Below are positions 345 through 14,760 of a stretch of DNA of 64,000 nucleotides, one piece after another; within the stretch, counting starts at the first letter, position 1; every line of letters begins with the position of its first letter. This stretch comes from Candidatus Levyibacteriota bacterium. GTDB lineage: Bacteria > Patescibacteriota > Microgenomatia > Levybacterales > UBA12049. Made by a program: the position numbers and the translations under genes. The stretch is from positions 80,689 to 144,688 of the forward strand of contig JACPLG010000008.1 of NCBI GenBank assembly GCA_016186625.1. Reading direction: 5' to 3'. Below the pieces are notes generated by a model. That model was not told where the DNA came from. It saw only the letters and a list, made by a program, of their open reading frames with translations, and searched no databases.

Positions 345-2411
345 TTATTTTACTCTTGCGTTAAACTTTGAGGAAATTGCACTGATTACTTGTTCTCTAA
401 TTTCTGAAACTTCTTTGCTTGTTAAATTTCTATCTTCAGCTTGATAAATAATGTGAAAAGTTCTGGCATTTTCAAACTGGTCCTTAAGCTTCACTTCTCT
501 TATCAAAAAACTCTGAAGAGATATCTCCTCAATAACATCTTGAGTTGAAACTGCCTCATCCAAAACAAAAGTAATATCCTCAAAAACTGCCGGAAATTTT
601 GCCAGAGGTTTGTAAACTTTTTTATTGGTTGCGTTTTTAAGCAAGATTTCAAAGTTAATTTCAAAATCTATGAGATTGCTATTTAGAATTTCAATATATC
701 CGACATTTTCGTTTTCAATTGAGATTTCTGCTCCTCCTTCTACTCTATTTTTAACTTTGTAATTTTTTATCTCCAAATCGTCAAATAGGGCTTCGATTAG
801 TCCTTTTACTTCAAAGAAAGAGACTCCCGTTTTTTTAATAAGTCCGGCAAGAGTTAACTTTTCTTTAGGCAGGTTTTGCCCTGAGCCGATTCGGTCTGAG
901 CGGGTTCGACGTCCTGAGCTCACCGTCGAAGGACTCACGGTCGAATGACTTGTCGAACGGGCTTTTTGACTTTTATGATAGGTATTGGCAAGTTCAAAGA
1001 TTTTGATAATTTCTTTTGCCTTATTGTTCTCAGCTACCTCGAGAAGGCTTGGAACAAGAGTATTTCGAAGATATACCATATCCGAAGTTAATGGATTTTT
1101 AAGCTTAATGGCATTATTAATTGGACCGTCAAATAAATCCTCAGAAACCAGGGAATATGTGTAAACCTCAGTGTATCCCCAGTATTTAAGTGCGCTTTTA
1201 ATTCTATCTTCCCAGTAGAAATTGTTGGCATATGGAATCGTTTTGTCACTTAAGAAAGATGGGATAATACTTGGTATCCTATGGTACCCATAAATTCTTG
1301 CTATTTCTTCAATGATGTCTTCTTCTATTTTTATATCATTAATCCGTTCTGATGGAACCTCAACCTTAAAAAAACCTAAATGAGCGCTGACTTTAAAACC
1401 AAGTTTTTGAAGAATTTCAGTTGCGATATTTGGATTTATCCCAACTCCAATTATCTTGTTAATCTTCTCAAGAGAAACCTTTACAGTTTGAGTTTTTGGT
1501 TTGTTAGGATAAACATCCAGGATTTTTGAGACAACTTTTCCCTGTGCAATTTGCTGATAAAGTTCAATTCCTCTTTTTAGCGCAAGTTCCATAAACTCCG
1601 GATCCACTCCCTTTTCGTTAACAATGGCCGCTTCAGTTCTAATTCCAAGACTCATTGAAGTTTGTCTGATACGATCGGGATTATTATTATCAAGAAAAAA
1701 TAGTATTCTTTTGGTTTTTTCATTAACAACAGAATTTGCTGTTCCCATAATTCCCAAAAGGTCGATTATTTCCCCTTCCCCATTGTCAGCAACTATATCT
1801 CCACCCAGTAATCGATACTCTTTCCCATCCAAAGTTGTAATAATTTCTCCTTTTTTTGACCCTCTTATTATCATCTCTTTAGTGTTTAATAAATCGTAGT
1901 CAAACACATGAGCGGGGTGGCCAATTTCGCGCATTACATAATTTGTGACATCAACCAGATTATTAAGACTTCTTATTCCGGAAAGTTCCAGACGATTGGC
2001 AATTTCTTTTGGGCTTTTGCCAATATTAACTTCCAAGACCACAGCCATAATTCTATTTACCAGTTTTGGGTCATTTTTGATTTCAATCGGGAAAGAAATA
2101 TCTCCTTCCGCAACTTTTGGTGTTTTTGGCGGAATGTATTTTGCCGCAATTCCATTCCCTGAAAGTGAAGCCGTTGCCTCTTTTGCAATTCCTGCAACAG
2201 ACATTAAATCCGGCCTGTTGGTTGTAACCTCGATATCATAAGTGTAATCATCTCCAGCTTTCCCGCCTGCAACGCCTGCGCTAGCATAGCGGGCAGGTTC
2301 TGTCTGCCCTACCGAAACAGAAGTCAGGGAAAGTTGCCGGGCAATTTCTGAGGCACTTGCTTTTGTTTCCAAAAATTCTCTTAACCAAGAGTCAACGATT
2401 TTTATTTGCAT
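345..2411 (-). CDS. pheT: Phenylalanine--tRNA ligase beta subunit
   Basis: 688 aa; N-terminal MQIKIVDSWLREFLE..., B3/B4 and B5-like regions, C-terminal FDX-ACB-like domain. Directly downstream of pheS on the same strand. ATG start at 2409-2411. Confidence 0.9.
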   Translation of the reverse strand: MQIKIVDSWLREFLETKASASEIARQLSLTSVSVGQTEPARYASAGVAGGKAGDDYTYDIEVTTNRPDLMSVAGIAKEATASLSGNGIAAKYIPPKTPKVAEGDISFPIEIKNDPKLVNRIMAVVLEVNIGKSPKEIANRLELSGIRSLNNLVDVTNYVMREIGHPAHVFDYDLLNTKEMIIRGSKKGEIITTLDGKEYRLLGGDIVADNGEGEIIDLLGIMGTANSVVNEKTKRILFFLDNNNPDRIRQTSMSLGIRTEAAIVNEKGVDPEFMELALKRGIELYQQIAQGKVVSKILDVYPNKPKTQTVKVSLEKINKIIGVGINPNIATEILQKLGFKVSAHLGFFKVEVPSERINDIKIEEDIIEEIARIYGYHRIPSIIPSFLSDKTIPYANNFYWEDRIKSALKYWGYTEVYTYSLVSEDLFDGPINNAIKLKNPLTSDMVYLRNTLVPSLLEVAENNKAKEIIKIFELANTYHKSQKARSTSHSTVSPSTVSSGRRTRSDRIGSGQNLPKEKLTLAGLIKKTGVSFFEVKGLIEALFDDLEIKNYKVKNRVEGGAEISIENENVGYIEILNSNLIDFEINFEILLKNATNKKVYKPLAKFPAVFEDITFVLDEAVSTQDVIEEISLQSFLIREVKLKDQFENARTFHIIYQAEDRNLTSKEVSEIREQVISAISSKFNARVK
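895..962. repeat. MITE-like TCGAA/CCTGAG-rich repeat inserted in-frame in pheT
   Basis: gttcgacgtcctgagctcaccgtcgaaggactcacggtcgaatgacttgtcgaacggg shares GTCGAATGACTTGTCGAA with the element at 32565-32596. Translated as the low-complexity peptide ARSTSHSTVSPSTVSSGRRTRSDRIGSGQ in a PheT linker. Confidence 0.45.
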
Positions 2412-2475
2412 ACGCTCATGTCATTCTGAGGCTTGCCGAAGAATCTTAAGATCCTTCACTTCGTTCAGGATGACA
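2412..2475. repeat. Related short palindromic repeat in the pheS-pheT spacer
   Basis: atgtcattctgagg...cttcacttcgttcaggatgacat; inverted repeat; shares the CACTTCGTTC motif with the element next to tRNA-His. Confidence 0.3.
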
Positions 2476-3510
2476 TTAAAATTGCTCGAGAAATTCTAAT
2501 TTATTTGAATAGAGTAAGCGCAAATCATCAATTTCGATCCCTTCTTTCATCATTAGAACTCGCTCAACCCCCCAACCGAATGCGAATCCGTTGTGTTTTT
2601 CCGGATCAATCTTGCAGTTTCTTAGAACTTGAGGATGAACCATCCCCGCTCCTCCCAATTCAAGCCAGCCTTCTTTGCAGAGCTTACAGCCCCGGCCTAA
2701 ACAAACACCGCATGTTACATCCACTTCAAAAGATGGTTCGGTAAACTCAAAATGATAAGGTCTTATTCTTGATTTTCGTTCTTCTCCAAAATATGTTTTA
2801 ACAAAATATTCTAGTACTCCCTTAAGGTTTGAGATCGATAAACTAGTATTAACAGCTAATCCTTCAAACTGGTGAAACATTGGGGTATGCGAAACATCAG
2901 ACTGTCTCCTGTAACACCTAGCGATATTTAGCATTTTAATAGGAAGCTTTCCTTTTTCCATCTCTCTAATTTGACCATTTGATGTGTGTGGAGTTAAAAG
3001 CATTGGCCCATATTTTGGATGAGGGGGTGCATCTATGAAAAAGGTTTCCCAGTCATCCCTAGCAGGATGATTTTCCGAAAAGTTGAGAGCTCCGAAGGGG
3101 TACCAGTCCCATTCCACTTCAGGATAGCGGACTCGCCCAAATCCTATTTTTTCAAAAATTGATGTTATTTCCCAAATTGCCTGAGTGATGAGATGTAAGT
3201 GTCCAAGGGGAGGCCTTATTCCCGGGTCGGTTACATCAATTTTTTTGATTCTTTTCCCTAATTCTTGATTCTTAATTCTTACTTCTTGTTCGATAATGGC
3301 ACTTTCAATTGATTCCTTAACTTCATTTGCTAAGATTCCCACCTCTCTTCTTTTCTCAGGATTTATTTTTGGAAGGCGTTTTATAACAAGAGTTAACTGG
3401 CCGCTTTTTCCCAAAAATTGCAGTTTAATATGTTCAAGTTCGTCCGGGTCCTTAGCGTCCAAAATAAGTGACACCGCATTATTTTTGATATTGATGAGTT
3501 CATTTTCCAT
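2476..3510 (-). CDS. pheS: Phenylalanine--tRNA ligase alpha subunit
   Basis: 344 aa; class II aaRS motifs (FRPSYFPFTEPS-like EFTEPSFEVDV, GWAFGLGLERL-like GFAFGWGVERV). ATG start. Confidence 0.9.
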   Translation of the reverse strand: MENELINIKNNAVSLILDAKDPDELEHIKLQFLGKSGQLTLVIKRLPKINPEKRREVGILANEVKESIESAIIEQEVRIKNQELGKRIKKIDVTDPGIRPPLGHLHLITQAIWEITSIFEKIGFGRVRYPEVEWDWYPFGALNFSENHPARDDWETFFIDAPPHPKYGPMLLTPHTSNGQIREMEKGKLPIKMLNIARCYRRQSDVSHTPMFHQFEGLAVNTSLSISNLKGVLEYFVKTYFGEERKSRIRPYHFEFTEPSFEVDVTCGVCLGRGCKLCKEGWLELGGAGMVHPQVLRNCKIDPEKHNGFAFGWGVERVLMMKEGIEIDDLRLLYSNKLEFLEQF

Positions 3511-3628
3511 GATGTTTTAAGGATATCAAATTTAAAGCCAAAATGCAGTCTGCCTGTTTTATAAACATTGTCAGAGCTTGACAAGTGTTTGTGGAAAATG
3601 ATTAGCTAATATCAGATAAGAATTTATT

Positions 3629-5860
3629 ATGCCCGATAATCAGGAGCAAATTGTTGTAAAAGAAAAATCAGGATTTATAAGAAGGGTTCTTGGACCAATT
3701 TTATCCCCCTTTGATAAGCTTTTTAGTATGCTTCCCAAGGATAAACGAAAACTAACACTCCTAATTATTACCCTGGCAATTCCCATAACTGTAATAGCTG
3801 CTCTTATTCAGCAGGAGCTAAGGGGAAGAGCTGCTGGAGAAAGACAGCTCATCATGGGAATGTCTAACAGAGGTGGTTATAGTAGTAAGGATGTTAATGT
3901 TCAAGGAATTAAAGAAGCAATAGAAACAATCAGGAGAGAAACAGGACGATATCCTGCCATTTATCCATTATGGGTAAATTTTGAAGAAAGTCCAGGAAGT
4001 GGTGACCCGAGAGCCTCTTTCCCTAGTAAAGAAATTACAGATTATTTAGATGCCAGAGGTATTGCTGTTGCTATTTTTATGCAGCCCGTTGGCCCTGGGA
4101 TTGGCAGAAATGACGGAAGGTTTATTTTCTCCTCTAATACCTCTTCGTCAGTACCAAATGGCCAGATTAAGTTTGATTCTTCAAATCCCTCAAGTATAAC
4201 AAGGATATATGTAAGTAAAACTTCTTCAGGCACTGAAAATCCTGCAGGGCTTGCTAATACCTGGGTTCCTGGCGCAAAGGCTTCTGTGTTCGGCTCTGAT
4301 TCAAGTGGGAATGTAGCCTATACTGATTCAAATTTTTTTGGTTTCACTGTTAACTCTAAGGCAGACAGCGGGACTTTCTGGACGCTCGGAGTAACTGTAA
4401 ATAGAGCTGGTAGTTTGTCCGGTATTTTTTCAAACGGAAGGCCTGTCTTCATTACGATGGCCGATACTTTTGCCAAAAAATACAGCAATCAATCAATCGC
4501 AAACGGATCGTTTGATCCATTTCTGCGGCAACTTGCACAGGCTGCAAGATCGTATGGGAAACCTGTTCTTCTTAGATATGCTCATGAAATGAATGCACAT
4601 TGGTTCCCATGGACAGTTGGACAACCAGACCCAAAAAAAAGTTATGGAAGATACGTGTATTTTAATCAGGGAAATACGCCTTCGAATTATGTAGCAGCAT
4701 GGAGACGTGTTTATACAGTTATAAAATTGGAAGCTCCGAATGTTAAATTATTCTGGGTTCCATCAAGAGTGGCTCCGACAAAACTTGATATATATGATGG
4801 TTTTTACCCCGGGAATAACTACGTTGATTATGTAGGGTTTGATGCTTATAGCGGTCTAGGCGGAAATAACCCTAAGAACTATATTTCTATGTATGACTCC
4901 TACAAAAGAGTTATGGAAAAGGTACTACAGCTTTCAAATAACAGAAAACCTGTTTTTATAGGTGAAACTGGAGTCAATTCTATAAATGTACCAAGCGGTT
5001 TTAGTAGAGCGGATTGGGTGAGGCGAGGATATAATGATGCATATAACGCATGGCCCAAGCTCGCAGGAATTATTTATTTCAACTTTGATATGAGAGATAC
5101 TGAGAACAATAACTGGTTATTATCTGCTTCTCCCGAAGCGTTGTCAGCATATAGAGATATAGCTTCAAGAGCCAAGTTTCAGGGTAAATTTGAGGAAGGA
5201 TCCACACCAACACCAACCCCAGTCCTTCCAACAGTTCCGCCAATTATAGTATCGCCTACCCCATCCCTAGGTATTTCAGCCTTCATAGAGTCAGGTGGAA
5301 GTGTGGTTATGGAAGCTGAGAATAATGACAAAAGATTTAATAGAGGCAATTATAGGTGGGCAGGTGCGGCACCGGATACTCCACTCACAGCAACCTCTGG
5401 ATATGTGAACGAAGGAACTAGAAAAGGATACACAGCAGTAAGACCAAATGATGATAAAGTAACTTATTTTGAAGGAGGATATAAAAAGGGTCCTGAAGTG
5501 GTGTATAACATTAATTTCTCTTCAACTGGAACATATTATGTTTACATGAGAAGCTCAGGTCCTGATAGCAAATCAGACTCAGCTCACTATGGTCTTGATG
5601 GCGCCTATGATGGCACTATAGCCTTATATTATAGAGGGGAGGGGGGTGCTTCAACTAATTGGCAGTGGAAAGGAAATAATAATGATGGAACAAAAGCTAG
5701 AATTAGAGTTACTACTCCTGGAATTCATACGTTCCATATATACATGCGAGAAGACGGGACACAAATCGATAGAATTCGACTTTTTAAAAATTCTTCCTGG
5801 ACTCCATCACCAGGTCCTGCTGCAGATGGTCCTTCAGAAAGTCTAAGAGGGAAATTCTAG
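3629..5860 (+). CDS. Membrane-anchored glycoside hydrolase family 26-like protein with PT-linker and C-terminal beta-sandwich (CBM-like) domain
   Basis: N-terminal TM helix; LLRYAHEMNAHWFPW matches the GH26 acid/base signature (AHEMN..W..W); FIGETGVNS matches the nucleophile GE.G region; TPTPTPVLPTVPP linker. Confidence 0.55.
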   Translation: MPDNQEQIVVKEKSGFIRRVLGPILSPFDKLFSMLPKDKRKLTLLIITLAIPITVIAALIQQELRGRAAGERQLIMGMSNRGGYSSKDVNVQGIKEAIETIRRETGRYPAIYPLWVNFEESPGSGDPRASFPSKEITDYLDARGIAVAIFMQPVGPGIGRNDGRFIFSSNTSSSVPNGQIKFDSSNPSSITRIYVSKTSSGTENPAGLANTWVPGAKASVFGSDSSGNVAYTDSNFFGFTVNSKADSGTFWTLGVTVNRAGSLSGIFSNGRPVFITMADTFAKKYSNQSIANGSFDPFLRQLAQAARSYGKPVLLRYAHEMNAHWFPWTVGQPDPKKSYGRYVYFNQGNTPSNYVAAWRRVYTVIKLEAPNVKLFWVPSRVAPTKLDIYDGFYPGNNYVDYVGFDAYSGLGGNNPKNYISMYDSYKRVMEKVLQLSNNRKPVFIGETGVNSINVPSGFSRADWVRRGYNDAYNAWPKLAGIIYFNFDMRDTENNNWLLSASPEALSAYRDIASRAKFQGKFEEGSTPTPTPVLPTVPPIIVSPTPSLGISAFIESGGSVVMEAENNDKRFNRGNYRWAGAAPDTPLTATSGYVNEGTRKGYTAVRPNDDKVTYFEGGYKKGPEVVYNINFSSTGTYYVYMRSSGPDSKSDSAHYGLDGAYDGTIALYYRGEGGASTNWQWKGNNNDGTKARIRVTTPGIHTFHIYMREDGTQIDRIRLFKNSSWTPSPGPAADGPSESLRGKF

Positions 5861-5922
5861 CAAGTACCACACATATTGACTTTACTTTCTTATTAATTCT
5901 ATGATCAAATCAGGCAACTTAT

Positions 5923-8900
5923 ATGTCTTATTATTATAAGTTCAATAACCGTCTTGAAGAAGTAAAAAGCAGATCTCAAAAACTCACCAAACTCCTCAAA
6001 AAAAATAAAAAATCCATAATTGCCGTTTTGATTTTAATTGTTTTTCCTGTCTTTGTTATTGCATCTCAGCAGAGACAAGAGACAAGACAATTCGCATCGG
6101 AAAAAAATAAAGAAGAGAAAACTCCTCCACCTTCCCCAAAAGGATATATTGTAGAATTTAGTTCTTCTCCTGCAATTGCTGTTTCATCGGATGAAGAGGA
6201 TGAGGATGAAGATGAAGATAAATTAGACAAAACACTCCTAGAATCTTCCTATGAGTCTAATAAAAATAAAGTTATTGCGGAGCACCAACGCGCAAAAAGT
6301 GATGTTCTTGAAAAAATTGGAAAGAAATCATTTGATTTATCCAAAAGTAAGAAGGGTGATAAAAAAGTTGTACTTCTGTCAGAGTTTCGAAGTATTTTTA
6401 ACGGTATAGCTATTGATGCAGACGAAGAAGATATTGAGAAAATAAAAAAATCCTCATATGTAAAAGCAGTTTATCCAAATCTGGCAGTTGAAACAACACT
6501 AATGGATTCTATCCCTCTAATAAAGGCAGATAAGGTCTGGCAGGATGTTTTAGACTCAACAGGTGCTCCTGTGACTGGGAAAGGAGTAAATGTGGTAATT
6601 TTGGATAGCGGGATAGATTATACGCATGTTGATTTAGGTGGGACAGTTATTGAGGAGAGGCCTCTTGAGAAAATCAGCAATAAACCGATTATCAATTCGT
6701 ATAATACTGACTCTGCATTTTCATATAATCAAAATAGAATTGCCTATGCCTCAGGAGCGGACCAGGTGACAATTTACTCCTTTGATACCAAAAGCAGCGA
6801 AGACGTTAGTTTGGGGACTTCTGATATAACAGATCCATCTCTTCGCTTGGTTCTTCTTGCCGCAGATGAGCTTTTTTACATAAGCGGTTCTTTTAAAGTT
6901 GTTAACTTGTACCTGAAAAATCTTTCAAGTGGGCAGGTAAAGAAAATTGCCAACTTAGTTCAGGTAGACCAACAGGGTCAGGAAGACCTTGCGCTCATTT
7001 CAGGAATTGCTAGTAAATTTACATTTTCCGCCGATAAGCTATACTATGAGCGCCAGACAGGAGCTGTGGATGGTAATAAAAATATTCTTTACGCTCTCTT
7101 TGCCTATGATTTGTCAACGGGACAGGAGACAAAAATCCTGGATGATTCACCCTACGTGAGATTTGCAAAAGCTTCGGAGAATAAGCTTGTTTATTCCGTC
7201 TATGATCCTCAAGCGGCAAACTTCACAAAAAATGTAGTTAGAGATTTAGACACAGGGGAAGAAGAAGATATTATTTTTCCTGGAGTCGGGCCTGCAATTG
7301 ATTTTAAAAATAATTTAATTTTGTCTAAATCTTATGGTTCTTCTAGGACTTATGATTTATATAATATTGAAACAAAAGAGCAAAGAAAGCTTGTCTTTGA
7401 CGATTCAGAATCCGCACAGATTAATTCTCCAAACATAAACGATCTTTATTATAAACTCCCCAAAGGGCTAATTGGAGATAATGTTATTTTCTTTGAAAGA
7501 AACGACTTAACCTATCAGATAGTTGCTTTTGATTTACAAAAAAATAAGTATTCAATTATAAATCTTAAAACTTTCTCGGGGAAAGTTGCGGGTGATGGTA
7601 AAAAAGTATGTTTTGCCGCAAAATTAGATTTTGAAATTTATTGTCACAACTTCGATACTGAGTTTGCCTACCCATTACCGTCCCAAACCTATAATGAAAA
7701 AGTAAAAGGAGGAATTAATTTTTTTGATTCCGGAAAGGACGGACTGGATGATCTGGGACATGGCACTAATGTAGCCGGAGTAGCAGCAGGTAGCGGCAGT
7801 TTAAAAGGAGCTGCCCCCGGCGCTTTCCTATATTCATATAAAGTTGTGTCTGGGGAAGGTTTTGGATATGTTGATAAAATAATTGCGGGTATTGATGCGG
7901 CTGTCCAAACTAATTTTGACCTAGATCCAACGAATGATATCAAAGTTATTAACATAAGCCTTGGAGCAACTTGCGCTGGAAAGTATTCCGATATTTGCGG
8001 GCCCGCTGACCCAATGTCACGCTCAGTTAATAATGCAGTAGGAAGTGGTCTTGTAGTTGTTGCTGGCGCCGGAAATGGCGGAGCATCTGGCGATCTAATT
8101 TCAAGCCCGGGAACAGCAAGAAGAGCAATAACGGTTGGAGCAATTGATAAATCTAAAAAAATTGCGCAGTTCAGCTCACGCGGTCCTGTTATTTGGAACG
8201 ATAAAGATCTTAAAAAACCGGATGTAGTTGCTCCCGGGGTAGAAATCTGCTCCGCTCAGCTGTTTTATATTTATCGTTCATTTTTCAGATGTTTTGATGA
8301 TAAACATATAAAACAATCAGGAACATCCATGTCAACTCCTCACGTCACAGGACTTGCGGCCTTAATTCTTCAGGCTCATCCAGACTGGAGTCCGGCCCAA
8401 GTTAAAAAAGCAATAAAAGATACCGCAGTGGATTTAGATTATAATTACAACAGACAAGGTGCAGGCTTAATTAACGGGACAAAACTTTTTAAGAAATATC
8501 CTCCAGCCACTCCTACCCCAACAGCCGCTCCAACACCTTCTTCAAGAAAAGTAAATTTATTTCCTACCGCTGATTCGTTTGTGAGAAAAGATAGGCCAAA
8601 AAGTAATTTTGGGACTCTTAAATATATTCAGACTGATTCCAGCCCTGATACAATTTCATTTATTAAATTTAATTTAAGAAGTCTTGCTGACAAAAATATA
8701 ATTTCGGCAAAGTTATATTTAAAAGTAGATGATCCAAGCCAAGCAACGCAGTCTCTAAAAAGAGGGGCAGGCAACAACTGGACACAGCGAAATATTAATT
8801 ACAACAACAAGCCTTCTTTTAATGCGACCATCACCACATTTAAGGCAAATAAAAGAAACAAAATTATAGAATTAGATTTAATAAATCTGGTTAGAAATAG

Positions 8901-9015
8901 GAAAGGAGAGGTAATTACCTTAGGAATTACCTCATCCGGCACAAACCCAGCAAAATACTATTCAGTAGAAGCCAATAGATCAAATAGGCCCAAACTTGAA
9001 GTAGAATATAATTAA
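5923..9015 (+). CDS. Large secreted subtilisin-like serine protease (peptidase S8) with I9-like propeptide, a ~350-aa beta-propeller-like insertion and a C-terminal beta-sandwich domain
   Basis: VVILDSGIDYTHVDL (Asp), GHGTNVAGVAAG (His), GAGNGG (oxyanion Asn), GTSMSTPHVTGLAAL (Ser). N-terminal TM; acidic DEEDEDEDED stretch; PPATPTPTAAPTPS linker. Confidence 0.7.
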   Translation: MSYYYKFNNRLEEVKSRSQKLTKLLKKNKKSIIAVLILIVFPVFVIASQQRQETRQFASEKNKEEKTPPPSPKGYIVEFSSSPAIAVSSDEEDEDEDEDKLDKTLLESSYESNKNKVIAEHQRAKSDVLEKIGKKSFDLSKSKKGDKKVVLLSEFRSIFNGIAIDADEEDIEKIKKSSYVKAVYPNLAVETTLMDSIPLIKADKVWQDVLDSTGAPVTGKGVNVVILDSGIDYTHVDLGGTVIEERPLEKISNKPIINSYNTDSAFSYNQNRIAYASGADQVTIYSFDTKSSEDVSLGTSDITDPSLRLVLLAADELFYISGSFKVVNLYLKNLSSGQVKKIANLVQVDQQGQEDLALISGIASKFTFSADKLYYERQTGAVDGNKNILYALFAYDLSTGQETKILDDSPYVRFAKASENKLVYSVYDPQAANFTKNVVRDLDTGEEEDIIFPGVGPAIDFKNNLILSKSYGSSRTYDLYNIETKEQRKLVFDDSESAQINSPNINDLYYKLPKGLIGDNVIFFERNDLTYQIVAFDLQKNKYSIINLKTFSGKVAGDGKKVCFAAKLDFEIYCHNFDTEFAYPLPSQTYNEKVKGGINFFDSGKDGLDDLGHGTNVAGVAAGSGSLKGAAPGAFLYSYKVVSGEGFGYVDKIIAGIDAAVQTNFDLDPTNDIKVINISLGATCAGKYSDICGPADPMSRSVNNAVGSGLVVVAGAGNGGASGDLISSPGTARRAITVGAIDKSKKIAQFSSRGPVIWNDKDLKKPDVVAPGVEICSAQLFYIYRSFFRCFDDKHIKQSGTSMSTPHVTGLAALILQAHPDWSPAQVKKAIKDTAVDLDYNYNRQGAGLINGTKLFKKYPPATPTPTAAPTPSSRKVNLFPTADSFVRKDRPKSNFGTLKYIQTDSSPDTISFIKFNLRSLADKNIISAKLYLKVDDPSQATQSLKRGAGNNWTQRNINYNNKPSFNATITTFKANKRNKIIELDLINLVRNRKGEVITLGITSSGTNPAKYYSVEANRSNRPKLEVEYN

Positions 9016-9028
9016 AATCTACCTAAAC

Positions 9029-9265
9029 CTAGCCCCGTTCTTTACCTCTCATGGTTCCGTTCCAATCTGTCCACGGCACATCAGTTCTAGGTGCTTCTTT
9101 GGTTTCTCGATCTGCCAAAGCGTCTCTATATGCTTTTCCTGCATCATAAACAGGGAAGACGTGTCTTGCACCTGTATGGTCCCTTACAACCTCTGTTCCA
9201 ACTGGTATCGATGCTGACAGTCCACTTTCATTAATTCCTCCTCCAATTGTTTGTCCTGTTTCCAT
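9029..9265 (-). CDS. Hypothetical small protein P1 (paralog of the ORF at 13544-13840)
   Basis: Internal ATG (METGQTIGGG...) preceded by SD AAGGGTGGTGA; TGARHVFPVYDAG and PWTDW motifs resemble RVGHAFAVDGG and PWTEH in P2. GC-richer than flanks. Confidence 0.35.
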   Translation of the reverse strand: METGQTIGGGINESGLSASIPVGTEVVRDHTGARHVFPVYDAGKAYRDALADRETKEAPRTDVPWTDWNGTMRGKERG

Positions 9266-9317: not shown

Positions 9318-9347
9318 TTGTAGCTTTGCAAGGCCTGGCCTTGCAAA
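9318..9347. promoter_or_regulatory. 29-bp perfect palindrome AGCTTTGCAAGGCC-T-GGCCTTGCAAAGCT between leader hairpin and P1 RBS
   Basis: Read directly from the sequence; candidate operator or RNA hairpin. Confidence 0.35.
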
Positions 9348-9363
9348 GCTAATTTAAGACCAC

Positions 9364-9433
9364 AAAAAAACCTCCCGTTTGGGAGGCTTATTGCCGTTTC
9401 TTTTTTACAACAGCACCTTACCTCCCTAGATGG
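9364..9433 (-). promoter_or_regulatory. Conserved leader: intrinsic-terminator-like hairpin CCTCCCAAACGGGAGG + U-run preceded by GGGAGG-containing hairpin (possible attenuator)
   Basis: On the minus strand: ...CCCTCCATCTAGGGAGGTAAGG...GCCTCCCAAACGGGAGGTTTTTTT, ~80 nt upstream of the P1 start. Same architecture at 14477-14553. Confidence 0.4.
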
Positions 9434-9526
9434 AGGGTAAAGAAGAAATATACCGCTGTAACCCTATTCACTAAAATTATAATAGCAAACATCAAAATAA
9501 ATCGCAAGTGACTATCTTACACTTTA

Positions 9527-9551
9527 CCTTCCCACTTTCCATGTGGGAAGG
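9527..9551. repeat. REP-1 copy (CCTTCCCACTTTCCATGTGGGAAGG)
   Basis: Perfect hairpin palindrome; same family flanks RAYT at 31129-31776. Confidence 0.7.
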
Positions 9552-9558
9552 TAGATAC

Positions 9559-9996
9559 TTATTCCGGAAATAAGAATTCTAGAATTCTAGACTGGTCTTC
9601 TATTAAAGCCCTTGGCTCTGGAAACGCTAGTGTTGAAGTATTTAAAACATCTGGAGATGAAAAATCTGCATGACATGTTAGTATTGTTCCGTCAGGCAAA
9701 ATTACCCAATCCATACTTAATACGTCTCTCACGCGGCTTAAGCGTAAGATAGGCGTTTTTGATGTTACATCTGGGATTTCTCCATGTCCATCCTGAATTG
9801 GCTTGGACCCTTTCATGATGTGTGTTTTAAAACGGTCAGGATCAACGATTTGTATTCGCCTAATTATTGTGCCTAGATGCCAAGCAATCTGAGCAGCATG
9901 GTGAATATAAAATCCCTCTAGTCTTGTTCTGGAAGAATCGCGTCCGTCTAATTTAGGACGAGAATCTGGTGTCAGACCTGGTATTTCTCCTGCCAT
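9559..9996 (-). CDS. Hypothetical protein (weak DinB/YfiT-like HH..Q His-rich motif)
   Basis: 145 aa; GFYIHHAAQIAWHLG; no confident family. Confidence 0.35.
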   Translation of the reverse strand: MAGEIPGLTPDSRPKLDGRDSSRTRLEGFYIHHAAQIAWHLGTIIRRIQIVDPDRFKTHIMKGSKPIQDGHGEIPDVTSKTPILRLSRVRDVLSMDWVILPDGTILTCHADFSSPDVLNTSTLAFPEPRALIEDQSRILEFLFPE

Positions 9997-13317: not shown

Positions 13318-13362
13318 TTTACACCCCGGGTGTGGATTTAAGTTTACACCCTAGGATTTGTG
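13318..13362. repeat. REP-2 copy (TTTACACCCCGGGTGTGGATTTAAGTTTACACCCTAGGA)
   Basis: Two-part repeat identical in structure to copies at 52316 and 52824. Confidence 0.65.
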
Positions 13363-13363
13363 T

Positions 13364-13434
13364 GGACCCGAGAGGTATCGAACCTCTGGCCTCTTCGATG
13401 TCAACGAAGCGCTCTACCACTGAGCTACGAGTCC
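13364..13434 (-). tRNA. tRNA-Val (anticodon GAC)
   Basis: Minus-strand sequence GGACTCGTAGCTCAGTGGTAGAGCGCTTCGTTGACATCGAAG...GGTTCGATACCTCTCGGGTCCA folds as a cloverleaf; anticodon loop TTGACAT. Confidence 0.8.
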
Positions 13435-13490
13435 ATTCAAAGTCGGGCAGGTGTCAATGCAACGCTCTAACCAACTGAGCTACAACTCTA
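13435..13490 (-). pseudogene. tRNA 5'-half fragment (acceptor + D-arm + anticodon-loop TTGACAC, no T-arm) abutting tRNA-Val
   Basis: AGAGTTGTAGCTCAGTTGGTTAGAGCGTTGCATTGACAC then no pairing partner and no GTTCGA box. Confidence 0.4.
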
Positions 13491-13543: not shown

Positions 13544-13840
13544 TCAAATACAGTTAGTTCGAGGTCTTGGCATGACTTTGGCCATATTCGGTGCCTCTTC
13601 CGGAGGCGGAACATGCATTATTCCTCCATCCACTGCAAATGCGTGACCAACACGCATTGTTATACTCTCTCCGTCAGGAGTTCTTCCTGTGATAAATTCT
13701 TGTGGTGTACCACCATCTATTAATAAACCCGCTCTTCTATGTTCTGTCCATGGGTTTGCTTGTGTTACGCCTGTCATTTTATCCGCTGCATCAGCCGCTG
13801 CCCTTGATTCTCCTGTTTCAAATCCTGTCTCCGTTACCAT
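13544..13840 (-). CDS. Hypothetical small protein P2
   Basis: 98 aa; strong SD GGTAGGGGGTGAT 8 nt upstream of ATG; immediately follows P3 stop; GC-richer. Confidence 0.4.
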   Translation of the reverse strand: MVTETGFETGESRAAADAADKMTGVTQANPWTEHRRAGLLIDGGTPQEFITGRTPDGESITMRVGHAFAVDGGIMHVPPPEEAPNMAKVMPRPRTNCI

Positions 13841-13857
13841 AATTAATCACCCCCTAC

Positions 13858-14463
13858 CTAAAATTTCCCCTTTCCTTTCATTCGCAATTTTCCATTAGTG
13901 GATTCTCTTATTCCGTATCCAACTCCAGCTAATTTAGCTAATTCTTGCCCGATCTCATCATTTCTGCGGAAGGCGTTGACTACCAATACAGTTACTTTTT
14001 TTCTGGGATCTCTTACATCCGGTAATTCGTCTCTTGCGAAGAATGATGTCATGTCACTACCCACTCCAGTTCCTCTAATTTGCGCCCGGTACATTGTTGC
14101 TAACTCTGGTGTGTCTGGAATTGTTGTTAACCCCTGCCTATGTCCTTCGTTATTTGCCAGCCTTTCACCGTCTCTTTTTACCGCTTCCATTAATTCTGGA
14201 ATTTGGTTTGGAGGAAGTCTCCTGGGGTTGATAGAGAAAGTTAAGCTTGCACGTAACGCATCGGCTATAAACCAGCTACCGCCGTTTCCAGATATTGGTT
14301 CTACGCTTATTTTATCTACCTTTGTAGGGTCTATGTATGGATGTCTAGGAGAGTCTGCAATCATTCGCGCAATCACAGCCGCATCATGGCGGGTAAACTC
14401 ACCGGCTCTAAAAAGATCAGGTCTTTGACCTGTTTGTCTTGGTTCAAAATCTTGTCTTCCCAT
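13858..14463 (-). CDS. Hypothetical protein P3 (start taken at internal ATG; listed ORF begins with TTG)
   Basis: 201 aa, Arg/Asp/Gly-rich, no recognised motif; preceded by terminator-like hairpin 27 nt upstream. Confidence 0.4.
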   Translation of the reverse strand: MGRQDFEPRQTGQRPDLFRAGEFTRHDAAVIARMIADSPRHPYIDPTKVDKISVEPISGNGGSWFIADALRASLTFSINPRRLPPNQIPELMEAVKRDGERLANNEGHRQGLTTIPDTPELATMYRAQIRGTGVGSDMTSFFARDELPDVRDPRKKVTVLVVNAFRRNDEIGQELAKLAGVGYGIRESTNGKLRMKGKGKF

Positions 14464-14476
14464 ATTCTTAAGCAAC

Positions 14477-14620
14477 AAAAAAACCTCCCGTTGGGGAGGT
14501 TTCTAAGTTAGTCTAACCTTAATTATGCGTCAGACTTACCTCCCCGTAAGGAGTTGATAAGGACGAGAATAAGGTTTTTAATCTTTTCTACCATAGACAA
14601 ATACTAACAACTGGAAATAC
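14477..14620 (-). promoter_or_regulatory. Conserved leader (paralog of 9364-9433) with candidate promoter TTGACT-N17-TAGTAT and anti-antiterminator/antiterminator/terminator hairpins
   Basis: Minus strand: TTGACTtgagtatttccagttgtTAGTAT ... CTCCTTACGGGGAGGTAAG ... AACCTCCCCAACGGGAGGTTTTTTT then ATG 27 nt later. Confidence 0.4.
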
Positions 14621-14760
14621 TCAAGTCAAGAGGGGAAAAGAAGCGGAGCCCTTAAATAGCTAGAATAGTTGAATGGGTAAAATGGCTATATCATTAAGAG
14701 ACAGAATTATTATAATCGATAAACCATGTAGCCATGAAACAATTTAACAATTTACTGGCT

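Follow-up and report, generated by a model that had tools for sequence, protein, structure and literature searches.

Two minus-strand leaders of Candidatus Levybacteria probably act as leader-peptide transcription attenuators on a shared RNA chassis

Two loci on the minus strand of a 64-kb stretch of DNA (64,000 nucleotides, hereafter the window) are likely to be ribosome-mediated leader-peptide transcription attenuators of the trp/phe/ilv type, sharing one RNA chassis. This reading draws on sequence features, conservation, a constraint on the reading frame, alternative folds and, in related genomes, the link between the aromatic type of leader and the genes that follow it. The PheS protein encoded in the window matches one from a Candidatus Levybacteria MAG at 100% identity. 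A phage origin, suggested by the many scattered tRNAs, was rejected: megablast against a phage collection gave no match, and the Pfam matches were bacterial housekeeping genes.

Results

Architecture of the two leaders

Read along the minus strand, each locus has a putative promoter, then the GGGAGG hairpin and another small hairpin, and finally a CCUCCC/GGGAGG-U7 terminator that is nearly identical in the two. The parts of copy 1 are as follows.

9479-9507, minus strand: putative promoter of sigma-70 type (promoter scan and sequence), with -35 TTGCGA (9507-9502), a 17-nt spacer and an extended -10 TGcTATTAT (9487-9479)
9418-9471, minus strand: leader open reading frame (ORF), 17 aa, GTG to TAA, MNRVTAVYFFFTLHLGR (homologous peptides, frame relative to the GGAGG landmark)
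9421-9437, minus strand: hairpin 1:2 (anti-antiterminator), with region 1 CCCTCC (9437-9432), loop ATCTA and region 2 GGGAGG (9426-9421)
9392-9415, minus strand: middle hairpin UGCUGUU/AACGGCA in the interval from region 2 to the terminator (dG -7.4, z -4.0)
9364-9389, minus strand: intrinsic terminator, stem AAGCCTCCC-AAAC-GGGAGGTT plus T7, with the core GCCTCCC-AAAC-GGGAGG (9387-9364 including T7; hairpin and U-run scan, folding)
9322-9350, no strand: perfect 29-bp palindrome AGCTTTGCAAGGCC-A-GGCCTTGCAAAGCT in the interval from the terminator to the next ORF

The corresponding parts of copy 2 are these.

14601-14629, minus strand: putative promoter of sigma-70 type (promoter scan), with -35 TTGACT (14629-14624), a 17-nt spacer and -10 TAGTAT (14606-14601)
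14523-14594, minus strand: leader ORF, 23 aa, ATG to TAA, MVEKIKNLILVLINSLRGGKSDA (16 homologous peptides, frame kept)
14535-14558, minus strand: inner hairpin, CTCC (14553-14550), loop TTAC and GGGGAGG (14545-14539)
14477-14504, minus strand: intrinsic terminator, stem AGAAACCTCCC-CAAC-GGGAGGTTTTT with the core CCTCCC-CAAC-GGGAGG (14499-14477 including T7), T7 ending at 14477

The original prediction had described two look-alike loci with a GGGAGG hairpin and a terminator, and both were confirmed, at 9437-9364 and 14553-14477. The promoter in each leader and the short ORF after each promoter had been missed.

The leader ORF starts 7 nt past the -10 box in copy 1 and 6 nt past it in copy 2, where the ATG coincides with the predicted transcription start. 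Because the start codons are so close to the -10 boxes, both ORFs are probably translated without a 5' leader. Each contains a run of putative regulatory codons, TAT TTC TTC TTT (Tyr-Phe-Phe-Phe, 9450-9439) in copy 1 and CTT ATT CTC GTC CTT ATC (Leu-Ile-Leu-Val-Leu-Ile, 14573-14556) in copy 2. In both leaders, the codon run lies just 5' of, or within, the 5' arm of the first hairpin, the stop codon falls in GGGAGG or a few codons past it (in copy 1, TAA at 9420-9418 immediately 3' of GGGAGG), and an intrinsic terminator separates the leader ORF from the structural gene. The stem of hairpin 1:2 in copy 1 lengthens outward as CTTTACC/GGTAAGG, and the inner hairpin of the copy 2 type is extended in related leaders as CUUAACUCC/GGGAGGUAAG. 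Region 3 of copy 1, CCTCCC (9386-9381), is complementary to region 2; the complementarity noted earlier between the upstream GGGAGG and the CCTCCC of the terminator is real.

Within the 64-kb window there are exactly two matches to the pattern CCTCC-N3-8-GGAGGTTTT, compared with 0.01 in shuffles (0 of 100 shuffles reached 2), and the exact GGGAGGTAAG is present only at the two leader loci. A scan of the 64 kb for hairpins with U-runs turned up no other intergenic terminator of comparable kind, and the two leader terminators are the only strong intrinsic ones in the window. The hairpins and U-runs could simply be ordinary terminators of the upstream genes in which the same sequence was reused, as both stand downstream of a same-strand gene, the 145-aa ORF and DUF5660, respectively. 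However, they lie ~170 and ~260 nt beyond the stop codons of these genes, with a promoter and a conserved ORF in between; other genes of the window lack such terminators, and in all related loci the CCUCCC/GGGAGG type was found only after a leader ORF. We regard this explanation as extremely unlikely. A scenario raised together with the original prediction, in which the terminator belongs to the upstream gene and an independent promoter follows it, does not fit, since the promoter lies upstream of the terminator and, in copy 2, the next start codon follows the U-run after just 13 nt. The promoter scan found no promoter-like site between the terminator of copy 1 and the ORF that follows it.

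The next start codon had been placed 27-80 nt past the U-run, which we correct to 13 nt in copy 2 (ATG at 14463) and 98 nt in copy 1, where the ATG at 9265 is preceded by a Shine-Dalgarno sequence; alternatively, copy 1 offers an in-frame TTG at 9346, within the palindrome and 17 nt past the U-run. The perfect 29-bp palindrome after the copy 1 terminator is present at 9350-9322, as had been reported. Among the loci examined, it is confined to this genome, and other loci have different hairpins at its position. As a second copy was found neither in the window nor among 28 retrieved loci, the palindrome was rejected as a repeated element.

Conservation in related leaders

About 30 related leaders were gathered from other Candidatus Levybacteria contigs, partly via PheS or DUF5660 irrespective of the motif, and the design of the window leaders is kept across them. 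The promoter geometry is shared by 32 related leaders, of which 28 have the start codon 6-10 nt past the -10 hexamer (exactly 7 nt in 17), and no Shine-Dalgarno sequence was found ahead of the leader ORF start. One match from the metagenome scan (L005), GC-rich and in an unrelated context, was set aside as a chance match.

We distinguish class B, the aromatic type represented by copy 1, from class A, the Leu/Ile/Val type represented by copy 2. Peptides with F/Y/W runs homologous to copy 1 were found at 12 loci, including MRNLTAVYFYFTFPNGR, MTRITTVWFYFTFPNGR, MNRNWYYFYFTSPTGR and MIRTAVWYYFTSLTGR, and 16 peptides are homologous to copy 2, with the branched-chain-type pattern M..NLI(I/V/L)(V/A)(I/L)(L/I)NS..GGK..A. 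The N-termini of the peptides are free to vary while the codon run is kept, and in the aromatic peptides F, Y and W are swapped among themselves, the position always remaining aromatic. Between start codon and GGAGG landmark, the distance shifts in steps of three only (45/48/51 and 43/46), with a single exception (L025_B), which is 1 nt shorter and stops earlier. The spacer that separates the stop codon from the terminator ranges from 23 to 34 nt and falls into all classes modulo 3. Regions 2, 3 and 4 are altered together in L028 (GGGCGG / CCGCCC / GGGCGG) and in L025:3245 (GGCGGG / CCCGCC / GGCGG).

The original prediction had proposed attenuation controlled by a ligand or a protein. Its attenuator architecture stands, but the sensor is probably a different one, given the conserved leader ORF with its codon runs. 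A leader of the riboswitch, T-box or PyrR-like kind, picking among three structures by binding a ligand or protein, would account for the existence of three mutually exclusive helices, and the conserved middle hairpin could in principle serve as its binding site. A hairpin does occupy the middle position in every related leader, but the stems differ and both sequence and loop vary. Conservation is poor in the unpaired parts, in contrast to the reading frame and the codon runs, which persist. An Rfam scan of the window and 10 related loci returned only tRNAs at threshold. The T-box consensus had been described as absent, and the Rfam T-box model matched neither the window at its gathering threshold nor, at E up to 10, one of the two leaders. 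We consider control by ligand or protein binding very unlikely.

Alternative structures and the proposed mechanism

The three mutually exclusive structures suggested earlier held in folding and are kept in the ~30 related leaders. Under constraint folding, the 1:2, 2:3 and 3:4 pairings exclude each other, and the position of the ribosome chooses among them. With the ribosome masking the RNA at the stop codon, only the terminator formed; the free RNA folded into hairpin 1:2 plus the terminator, and a ribosome stalled at the regulatory codons gave the antiterminator. As long as the 3' arm of the terminator is still missing, the antiterminator scores -16 to -27 kcal/mol, and in copy 1 the middle hairpin sits inside the antiterminator whenever the latter forms.

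Among 11 class B leaders, 94.5% of the cells were paired in hairpin 1:2 and every cell was paired in the 2:3 and 3:4 helices. Formal covariation within the class was not significant (the class B score was matched by 21 of 500 shuffles), and the class B alignment contained no double changes in the antiterminator. The formal covariation is weak because regions 1-4 are nearly invariant within a class. In the model-guided alignment of all types (A4, A5), the middle region was too ragged for pair counts. Support for the structures was drawn from conservation, from slid-partner controls and from divergent members, not from formal covariation.

Transcription start, translation of the ORF, stalling, termination and the regulatory outcome are predicted from the sequence and would be linked in the following way. 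A sigma-70-type promoter would start transcription at, or a few nt from, the start codon of the leader ORF. When charged tRNA is plentiful, the ribosome would reach the stop codon and cover region 2, the CCUCCC/GGGAGG-U7 terminator would form, and termination would release a transcript of ~105-118 nt; without translation, both hairpin 1:2 and the terminator would form. When charged tRNA is short, the ribosome would stall at Tyr-Phe-Phe-Phe in copy 1 or Leu-Ile-Leu-Val-Leu-Ile in copy 2 and cover region 1. Region 2 would then pair with the CCUCCC of region 3 around the middle hairpin while the 3' arm of the terminator has yet to be transcribed, and the resulting antiterminator would allow RNA polymerase to read on into the downstream genes.

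Genes downstream of the leaders

The genes and ORFs considered in the window are listed here.

345-3510, minus strand: pheS (3510-2476) and pheT (2411-345), which follow leaders of the copy 1 type in related genomes
9029-9265, minus strand: first ORF after copy 1, 78 aa, orphan, ATG with the Shine-Dalgarno sequence GGGTGGTGA
13858-14463, minus strand: first ORF after copy 2, 201 aa, ATG 13 nt past the U-run
13544-13840, minus strand: second ORF after copy 2, 98 aa, orphan
13362-13434: tRNA-Val(GAC), beyond the 98-aa ORF

In related genomes, at loci found via PheS irrespective of the motif, the aromatic leader stands after rplT(-greA) and before pheS-pheT, usually with at least one extra ORF between the leader and pheS. 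It immediately precedes the prephenate dehydratase gene at one locus (L017) and a full shikimate/aromatic operon together with pheST at another (L022), where the peptide contains W, Y and F. A TTT-type peptide, MKRYYVMSIKTTTS, lies ahead of HAD-thrS (L021). At these loci of related genomes, the aromatic and Thr leaders are followed by genes for metabolism or charging of the amino acid that they would sense.

Within the window, no gene of known amino-acid function follows either leader. Copy 1 is separated from pheST by two genes on the plus strand (3629-5860 and 5923-9015), one GH26-like and one a subtilase gene, so copy 1 no longer reaches pheST and, judging from this arrangement, would control only the 78-aa orphan ORF, presumably the sole gene still under this leader. 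The 78-aa ORF had no Pfam or NCBIfam match. Since pheS carries its own conserved TGATATCCT promoter-like box and apparently has its own promoter, the leader would supply no more than one of two inputs to pheST.

The 13-nt gap behind copy 2 leaves no room for a promoter, and the 201-aa gene must therefore rely on read-through. Copy 2 would control this ORF and probably also the 98-aa ORF, both of them orphans. No recognisable branched-chain gene was found beside the Leu/Ile/Val type, and at each of its 17 loci the targets are orphan ORFs; these downstream ORFs gave nothing in Pfam or NCBIfam, and a PDB profile search was empty. tRNA-Val(GAC) was rejected as the target, as it is on the opposite strand in 9 of 15 loci. 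The 201-aa protein matched only itself in a word-indexed protein search; a full HMMER scan of 1.8 billion representatives yielded 5-7 relatives, a tiny lineage-specific family. AlphaFold gave a poor model from the single sequence (pLDDT 38) and a pLDDT of 79 with 6 sequences. Foldseek found no match for the model in the PDB, and the predicted fold weakly resembles RelE/ParE-type toxins.

The first ORFs are poor in the residues that their leaders would sense: in a test that ignores the shared ancestry of the loci, I+L+V accounted for 0.162 vs 0.223 after branched-chain leaders (p = 1.3e-4; background 0.240) and F+Y+W for 0.042 vs 0.067 after aromatic leaders (p = 2e-3; background 0.098). Small proteins are generally poor in hydrophobic residues, which bears on this comparison.

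The leaders might instead be free-standing small genes, whose ~105-118 nt RNA and/or 17-23-aa peptide acts in trans without controlling the adjacent genes in cis. With a promoter of their own and a strong terminator, a short RNA is the expected main product; the class A peptide is conserved past the Leu/Ile/Val run, and the downstream genes are variable orphans. There is a precedent in Sinorhizobium, where the attenuator-derived RNA rnTrpL and the leader peptide peTrpL are reported to have functions in trans (PMC6614838, PMC7298713). However, the gene 13 nt behind copy 2 depends on read-through, and the aromatic leaders are matched with pheA, shikimate genes and pheST and the Thr leader with thrS, which argues for cis control. 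A purely trans-acting role therefore appears improbable; a trans role could exist besides attenuation, not replacing it.

Leaders of the erm/cat type stall ribosomes through the nascent peptide or translation stress. Stalling in the Levybacteria leaders could likewise be set by the nascent peptide or by general translation stress (antibiotics, ribosome shortage) and not by amino-acid supply. The conserved non-hydrophobic positions of the class A peptide (N..NS.xGGK) would fit this, for conservation reaching past the codon run (NS.xGGK) is superfluous for a pure codon sensor, and the class A downstream genes lack a link to branched-chain amino acids. Yet the N-termini vary while the codon run persists, F, Y and W interchange but stay aromatic, and the types pair up with cognate genes, namely thrS, pheST, pheA and the shikimate operon. 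That the ORFs downstream are in turn poor in the sensed residues also suits amino-acid-specific control. We judge stalling by peptide or stress unlikely and favour codon-run sensing of amino-acid supply.

Discussion

Rfam RF01859 (Phe_leader, pheL-pheA of gamma-proteobacteria) matched copy 1 with 37.0 bits and copy 2 with 46.6 bits, below its gathering score of 55. The leaders resemble this family in their nested hairpins followed by a GCCUCCC..GGGAGGC-U terminator, and one class B leader (L017) is likewise located ahead of prephenate dehydratase. However, the better match falls on the Leu/Ile/Val copy and is thus not aromatic-specific, and the class B leaders L006, L009 and L010 had no match at E up to 0.01. 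Because of these two observations and the sub-threshold scores, we interpret the likeness as one of architecture and terminator, not of family membership. RNAI and other weak Rfam matches stem from the terminator alone.

In E. coli, the pheM-pheST leader occupies the same spot, thrS-infC-rpmI-rplT-[leader]-pheS-pheT, and also comprises a short peptide with a Phe/Tyr run, a GGAGG-like region 2 and a GCCUCC/GGAGGC terminator with U7. The class B model picked out the pheM-pheST attenuator as its best match in 9 kb of E. coli sequence, at 23.5 bits, a likeness too weak to show common descent. In contrast to pheM, the Levybacteria version would be leaderless according to prediction, the interval up to pheS usually holds at least one additional ORF, and pheS apparently has its own promoter. 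In the window, the link between leader and pheST is moreover broken by the two inserted genes.

Leader peptides combined with a terminator and antiterminator are also found outside proteobacteria, including before aminoacyl-tRNA synthetase genes. Classical attenuators of Actinobacteria precede trp, ilvB, trpS and leuS (PMC1262725), and a three-hairpin attenuator is reported for C. glutamicum ilvBNC (PMC11857589). The Levybacteria leaders belong to another phylum, have unrelated sequences and reuse one chassis for several amino acids, often ahead of orphan genes. A parallel for leaderless sensing comes from mycobacteria, where short polycysteine ORFs with an AUG or GUG start are reported to control downstream genes through stalling at a codon run (bioRxiv 10.1101/834739). 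The Levybacteria leaders differ in carrying a canonical intrinsic terminator, which points to transcriptional control.

We found no Rfam family or paper covering these leaders, or attenuation of such kind in CPR/Patescibacteria. These bacteria have very small genomes with few recognisable regulators, and to our knowledge almost nothing is known of their nutrient sensing. If our reading is right, the mechanism is a textbook one, and its occurrence in Levybacteria adds a phylum to the range of classical attenuation. As a more tentative idea, which we put forward as possible but doubtful, one RNA chassis may have been copied and re-coded within Levybacteria genomes into sensors for aromatic residues, Leu/Ile/Val and Thr, and perhaps also for Leu and Met/Cys. 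In addition to genes for synthetases and biosynthesis, these sensors would switch on fast-evolving, lineage-specific small proteins poor in the sensed residue, one with the weakly RelE/ParE-like fold, as a starvation programme of reduced, probably host-dependent bacteria that could stop translation or act on the host.

The ~20-aa ORFs and ~110-nt transcripts predicted here are missed by gene callers, which gives the leaders value for annotation. E. coli and Levybacteria would show the same solution at the same spot of the thrS-infC-rpmI-rplT-pheST cluster. If the attenuator reading is true, a reusable leaderless leader-peptide attenuator lets Levybacteria track how well individual tRNAs are charged. 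The leaders would then flag a set of orphan genes as a starvation response and provide a direct handle on which amino acids Levybacteria experience as limiting.

Short reading frames in the two leaders

The two look-alike minus-strand leaders, copy 1 (about 9347-9560) and copy 2 (about 14479-14760), are intergenic, and each contains a short open reading frame (ORF) that the original prediction had overlooked. These ORFs start six or seven nt 3' of the -10 hexamer of a promoter of good quality, placed 5' of the terminator in both leaders by the promoter scan.

9996-9559, minus: 145-aa ORF upstream of copy 1
9507-9479, minus: copy 1 promoter, TTGCGA-17-TGcTATTAT
9471 (GTG) to 9418 (TAA), minus: copy 1 short ORF, product MNRVTAVYFFFTLHLGR
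9265-9029, minus: 78-aa ORF downstream of copy 1
15405-14761, minus: DUF5660 gene upstream of copy 2
14629-14601, minus: copy 2 promoter, TTGACT-17-TAGTAT
14594 (ATG) to 14523 (TAA), minus: copy 2 short ORF, product MVEKIKNLILVLINSLRGGKSDA
14463-13858, minus: 201-aa ORF downstream of copy 2

We number the successive pairing blocks as regions 1 to 4, with 1:2 being the anti-antiterminator, 2:3 the antiterminator, and 3:4 the terminator, of which region 3 (CCTCCC) is the 5' arm. The Tyr-Phe-Phe-Phe codons of copy 1 end 2 nt 5' of region 1 (CCCTCC), and its stop codon lies immediately 3' of region 2 (GGGAGG). The Leu-Ile-Leu-Val-Leu-Ile codons of copy 2 end 3 nt 5' of the first hairpin, with the stop codon 13 nt 3' of region 2. 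A sequence check reproduced exactly the hairpins, near-identical terminators, and 29-bp palindrome described previously.

An ordinary terminator at the end of the upstream gene had been considered as an alternative. However, the window holds two occurrences of the pattern CCTCC-N3-8-GGAGGTTTT, where shuffles predict 0.01, and a hairpin and U-run scan of the whole 64 kb detected no other comparable intergenic terminator. The two are therefore not generic gene-end signals. GC-rich hairpins with U-runs are very rare in the whole window, with only weak candidates outside the two leaders, several of them having protein-like sequence immediately 3'. The organism seems to keep canonical intrinsic terminators for attenuators. 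A 13-bp hairpin (CTACCTTCCCAC..GTGGGAAGGTAAA, 9523-9555), having no U-run on the minus strand, abuts the 145-aa ORF stop codon on one side and the copy 1 -35 box on the other.

Related loci and leader types

Scattered over the window are 13 tRNA genes, and thrS-infC-rpmI-rplT occur in it as a gene string. A "Candidatus Levybacteria bacterium" MAG encodes a protein with 100% identity to the PheS of the window, and a phage collection gave no match; the window therefore belongs to a CPR/Patescibacteria genome. Two DNA-pattern scans, covering species genomes and metagenomes respectively, yielded 13 usable loci; L005, a pattern-scan locus, was left out as a chance match. Eleven look-ups with the motif-blind anchors PheS and DUF5660 added 14 more, including some duplicates. 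The leader design first described from the two copies recurs in other Candidatus Levybacteria contigs (with handles such as L004 and L028), which represent related genomes, so that locus counts are not independent events.

All related loci share the order tig - DUF5660 - leader A - one to four small ORFs - tRNA-Val - HD protein - DUF5665 - thrS - infC - rpmI - rplT - (greA) - leader B - ... - pheS - pheT, where type A denotes Leu/Ile/Val-run leaders like copy 2 and type B aromatic-run leaders like copy 1. Every CCTCC..GGAGG-T4+ terminator in these loci follows a short ORF, and these ORFs fall into a few types. Type B peptides include MRNLTAVYFYFTFPNGR, MNRVLVVLFYFTSLTGR, MTRITTVWFYFTFPNGR, MIRTAVWYYFTSLTGR, MIKGLNFGFYFTHPTGR, and MNRNWYYFYFTSPTGR, and type A peptides follow M..(K/N)NLI(I/V/L)(V/A)(I/L)(L/I)NS(L/F)xGGKxxA. 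Additional leader types in related genomes use the same chassis:

L021 5227-5326: Thr-run peptide MKRYYVMSIKTTTS, before HAD-thrS
L028 7486-7586: Thr-run peptide MKQLYINKFYTITTLS, at the type A position, in an operon running into thrS
L004 222-332 and L023 2317-2427: peptide MKDLLALIKKLLGISKKESSS, in tandem just 5' of type A
L025 3245-3351: peptide MKSLMTCQMLCIA

A type B covariance model scored 83-116 bits for type B, 33-50 for type A, and 28-40 for other types, and found only the two copies in the window.

At 13362-13490 (minus), tRNA-Val(GAC) has an apparent 5' half of a second tRNA upstream, ending at a GAC anticodon; in L026 (11150-11500) and L027 (11870-12160), a complete tRNA-Val is apparently nested between halves of another tRNA-like sequence. 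The tRNA-Val(GAC) gene lies on the leader strand in 6 loci and on the opposite strand in 9.

Predicted alternative RNA structures

For both types, RNAalifold returned hairpin 1:2 together with the terminator. In type A, an extra outer helix pairs the regulatory codons (AACCUUAUUAU) with AUAACUAAGGUU, and three sequences show CG-to-UA double changes in it. Region 2 and the terminator are separated in every leader by a small hairpin, whose stem sequences differ (UUGCC/GGCAA, UGCG/CGCA, GUUGC/GCAAC, GUGUCUU/AAGACAU, CUGUU/AACAG) and whose z-score lies between about -2 and -5 except in two leaders.

Folding under different ribosome masks produced the three mutually exclusive structures originally proposed. 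The free RNA folds as hairpin 1:2 plus terminator. When a ribosome masks the regulatory codons, GGGAGGU and ACCUCCC pair with each other and enclose the middle hairpin, scoring -16 to -27 kcal/mol before the terminator 3' arm exists, and a mask at the stop codon leaves the terminator alone.

Within a type, covariation was not significant, the type B score being reached by 21 of 500 shuffles, because the three G/C blocks hardly vary; all cells of the 2:3 and 3:4 helices are paired, and five of seven pairs are invariant in each. In divergent members, by contrast, the blocks change together: GGGCGG / CCGCCC / GGGCGG in L028, GGCGGG / CCCGCC / GGCGG in L025:3245, and GGAGGUUG / CAACCUCC in the Thr leader of L021. 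Such jointly altered sequences are the informative cases for the predicted pairing.

Probable translation of the short ORFs

Of 32 leaders, 28 have the start codon 6-10 nt 3' of the -10 hexamer (exactly 7 nt in 17), and no Shine-Dalgarno sequence precedes the start codons of the 32. This geometry fits leaderless translation that begins at the very 5' end of the transcript. Both AUG and GUG starts occur, as they do in mycobacterial leaderless mRNAs (10.1101/834739). Within a type, the distance from start codon to GGAGG changes in whole-codon steps (45/48/51; 43/46), with the single exception of L025_B, where this distance is 1 nt less and the ORF meets a stop codon sooner, whereas the noncoding spacer from stop codon to terminator (23 to 34 nt) falls into every class modulo 3. 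Peptide N-termini are free to vary while the codon run is kept, and aromatic residues interchange yet remain aromatic. All our statements on leader expression are inferred from sequence.

Proposed amino-acid specificity and target genes

Aromatic leaders lie upstream of pheS-pheT. The one in L017 is 8 nt 5' of a prephenate dehydratase (PDT+ACT) gene, and that of L022, with Trp, Tyr, and Phe codons in its peptide, precedes genes for DAHP synthase, DHQ synthase, EPSP synthase, shikimate kinase, shikimate dehydrogenase, dehydroquinase, and chorismate synthase, followed on the same strand by prephenate dehydrogenase/dehydratase, chorismate mutase, an aminotransferase, pheS, and pheT. In L021, a Thr-run leader lies 5' of thrS.

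The Leu/Ile/Val type adjoins a cognate gene in none of the loci. Its peptide is conserved outside the codon run too, and hence the peptide or short RNA may have a role of its own. Proteins that have to be made during a shortage would be expected to use little of the scarce amino acid. We compared the first downstream ORFs, ignoring kinship among loci. Mean I+L+V was 0.162 after type A vs 0.223 after type B (Mann-Whitney p = 1.3e-4), both below the 0.240 of large window ORFs; F+Y+W was 0.042 after type B vs 0.067 after type A (p = 2e-3), both below the background of 0.098. This depletion would be an indirect signal of amino-acid specificity in both types.

Only 13 nt separate the end of copy 2 from the ATG of the 201-aa ORF, which is followed by a 98-aa ORF; the 201-aa ORF is therefore reachable by read-through only. 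Copy 1 is followed by the palindrome, the 78-aa orphan ORF, two plus-strand genes, and pheS-pheT.

3629-9015, plus: two genes, encoding a GH26-like/GH115_C protein and an S8 subtilase with I9 inhibitor domain and CBM96
3511-3550, minus: TGATATCCT or GATATACT box 6-9 nt 5' of the pheS start codon, conserved in most loci

Related genomes have the leader next to pheS on a single strand, and from synteny with L015 and L019 the plus-strand pair looks like an insertion that uncoupled the copy 1 leader from pheST. The box near the pheS start also occurs in L015, L017, L019, L024, L026, and L028, and its conservation suggests that pheS has its own promoter (extended -10) and a probably leaderless mRNA. 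This lineage may commonly use leaderless starts.

Only this genome carries the perfect 29-bp palindrome (9322-9350) that lies 3' of the copy 1 terminator; L004 and L023 carry the hairpin TCGCGTTTGACGCGA at its position, and L022 one with 13-nt arms (TTGTCATTGCGAG/CTCGCAATGACAA). On read-through RNA, such post-terminator hairpins may stabilise the 5' end or serve as a protein site.

In the more distant 1.08-Mb genome of L021, the pre-pheS leader (9381-9493) encodes MHKTAQSFFFFAFA and has GCGGAGG/CCUCCGC pairing, with the downstream start codon in a hairpin loop instead of a U-run terminator; it may be a translational variant. L021 also has a GC-rich, strongly self-complementary stretch of about 180 nt (5340-5525), with its own promoter-like site, between its Thr-type leader and HAD-thrS.

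Comparison with known attenuators

The probable mechanism of these leaders is classical attenuation. Closest by function are the pheM-pheST and pheL-pheA attenuators of E. coli and those upstream of trp, ilvB, trpS, and leuS in Actinobacteria (PMC1262725). E. coli K-12 has the same gene order as Levybacteria, thrS-infC-rpmI-rplT-pheM-pheS-pheT, in which pheM is a leader peptide of 14 residues between rplT and pheS, and its attenuator was the best match of the type B model in 9 kb (23.5 bits). The Rfam Phe_leader threshold of 55 bits was not reached by copy 1 (37.0) or copy 2 (46.6), the better match being the Leu/Ile/Val copy. For the leaderless start, the closest are mycobacterial polycysteine short ORFs (10.1101/834739), which act on translation without a terminator, whereas the Levybacteria leaders carry one. 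Full-text literature searches found no paper linking CPR, Patescibacteria, or Levybacteria to leader peptides or attenuators. The interest of these leaders lies in the phylum, in one chassis reused for several amino acids, and in the orphan targets.
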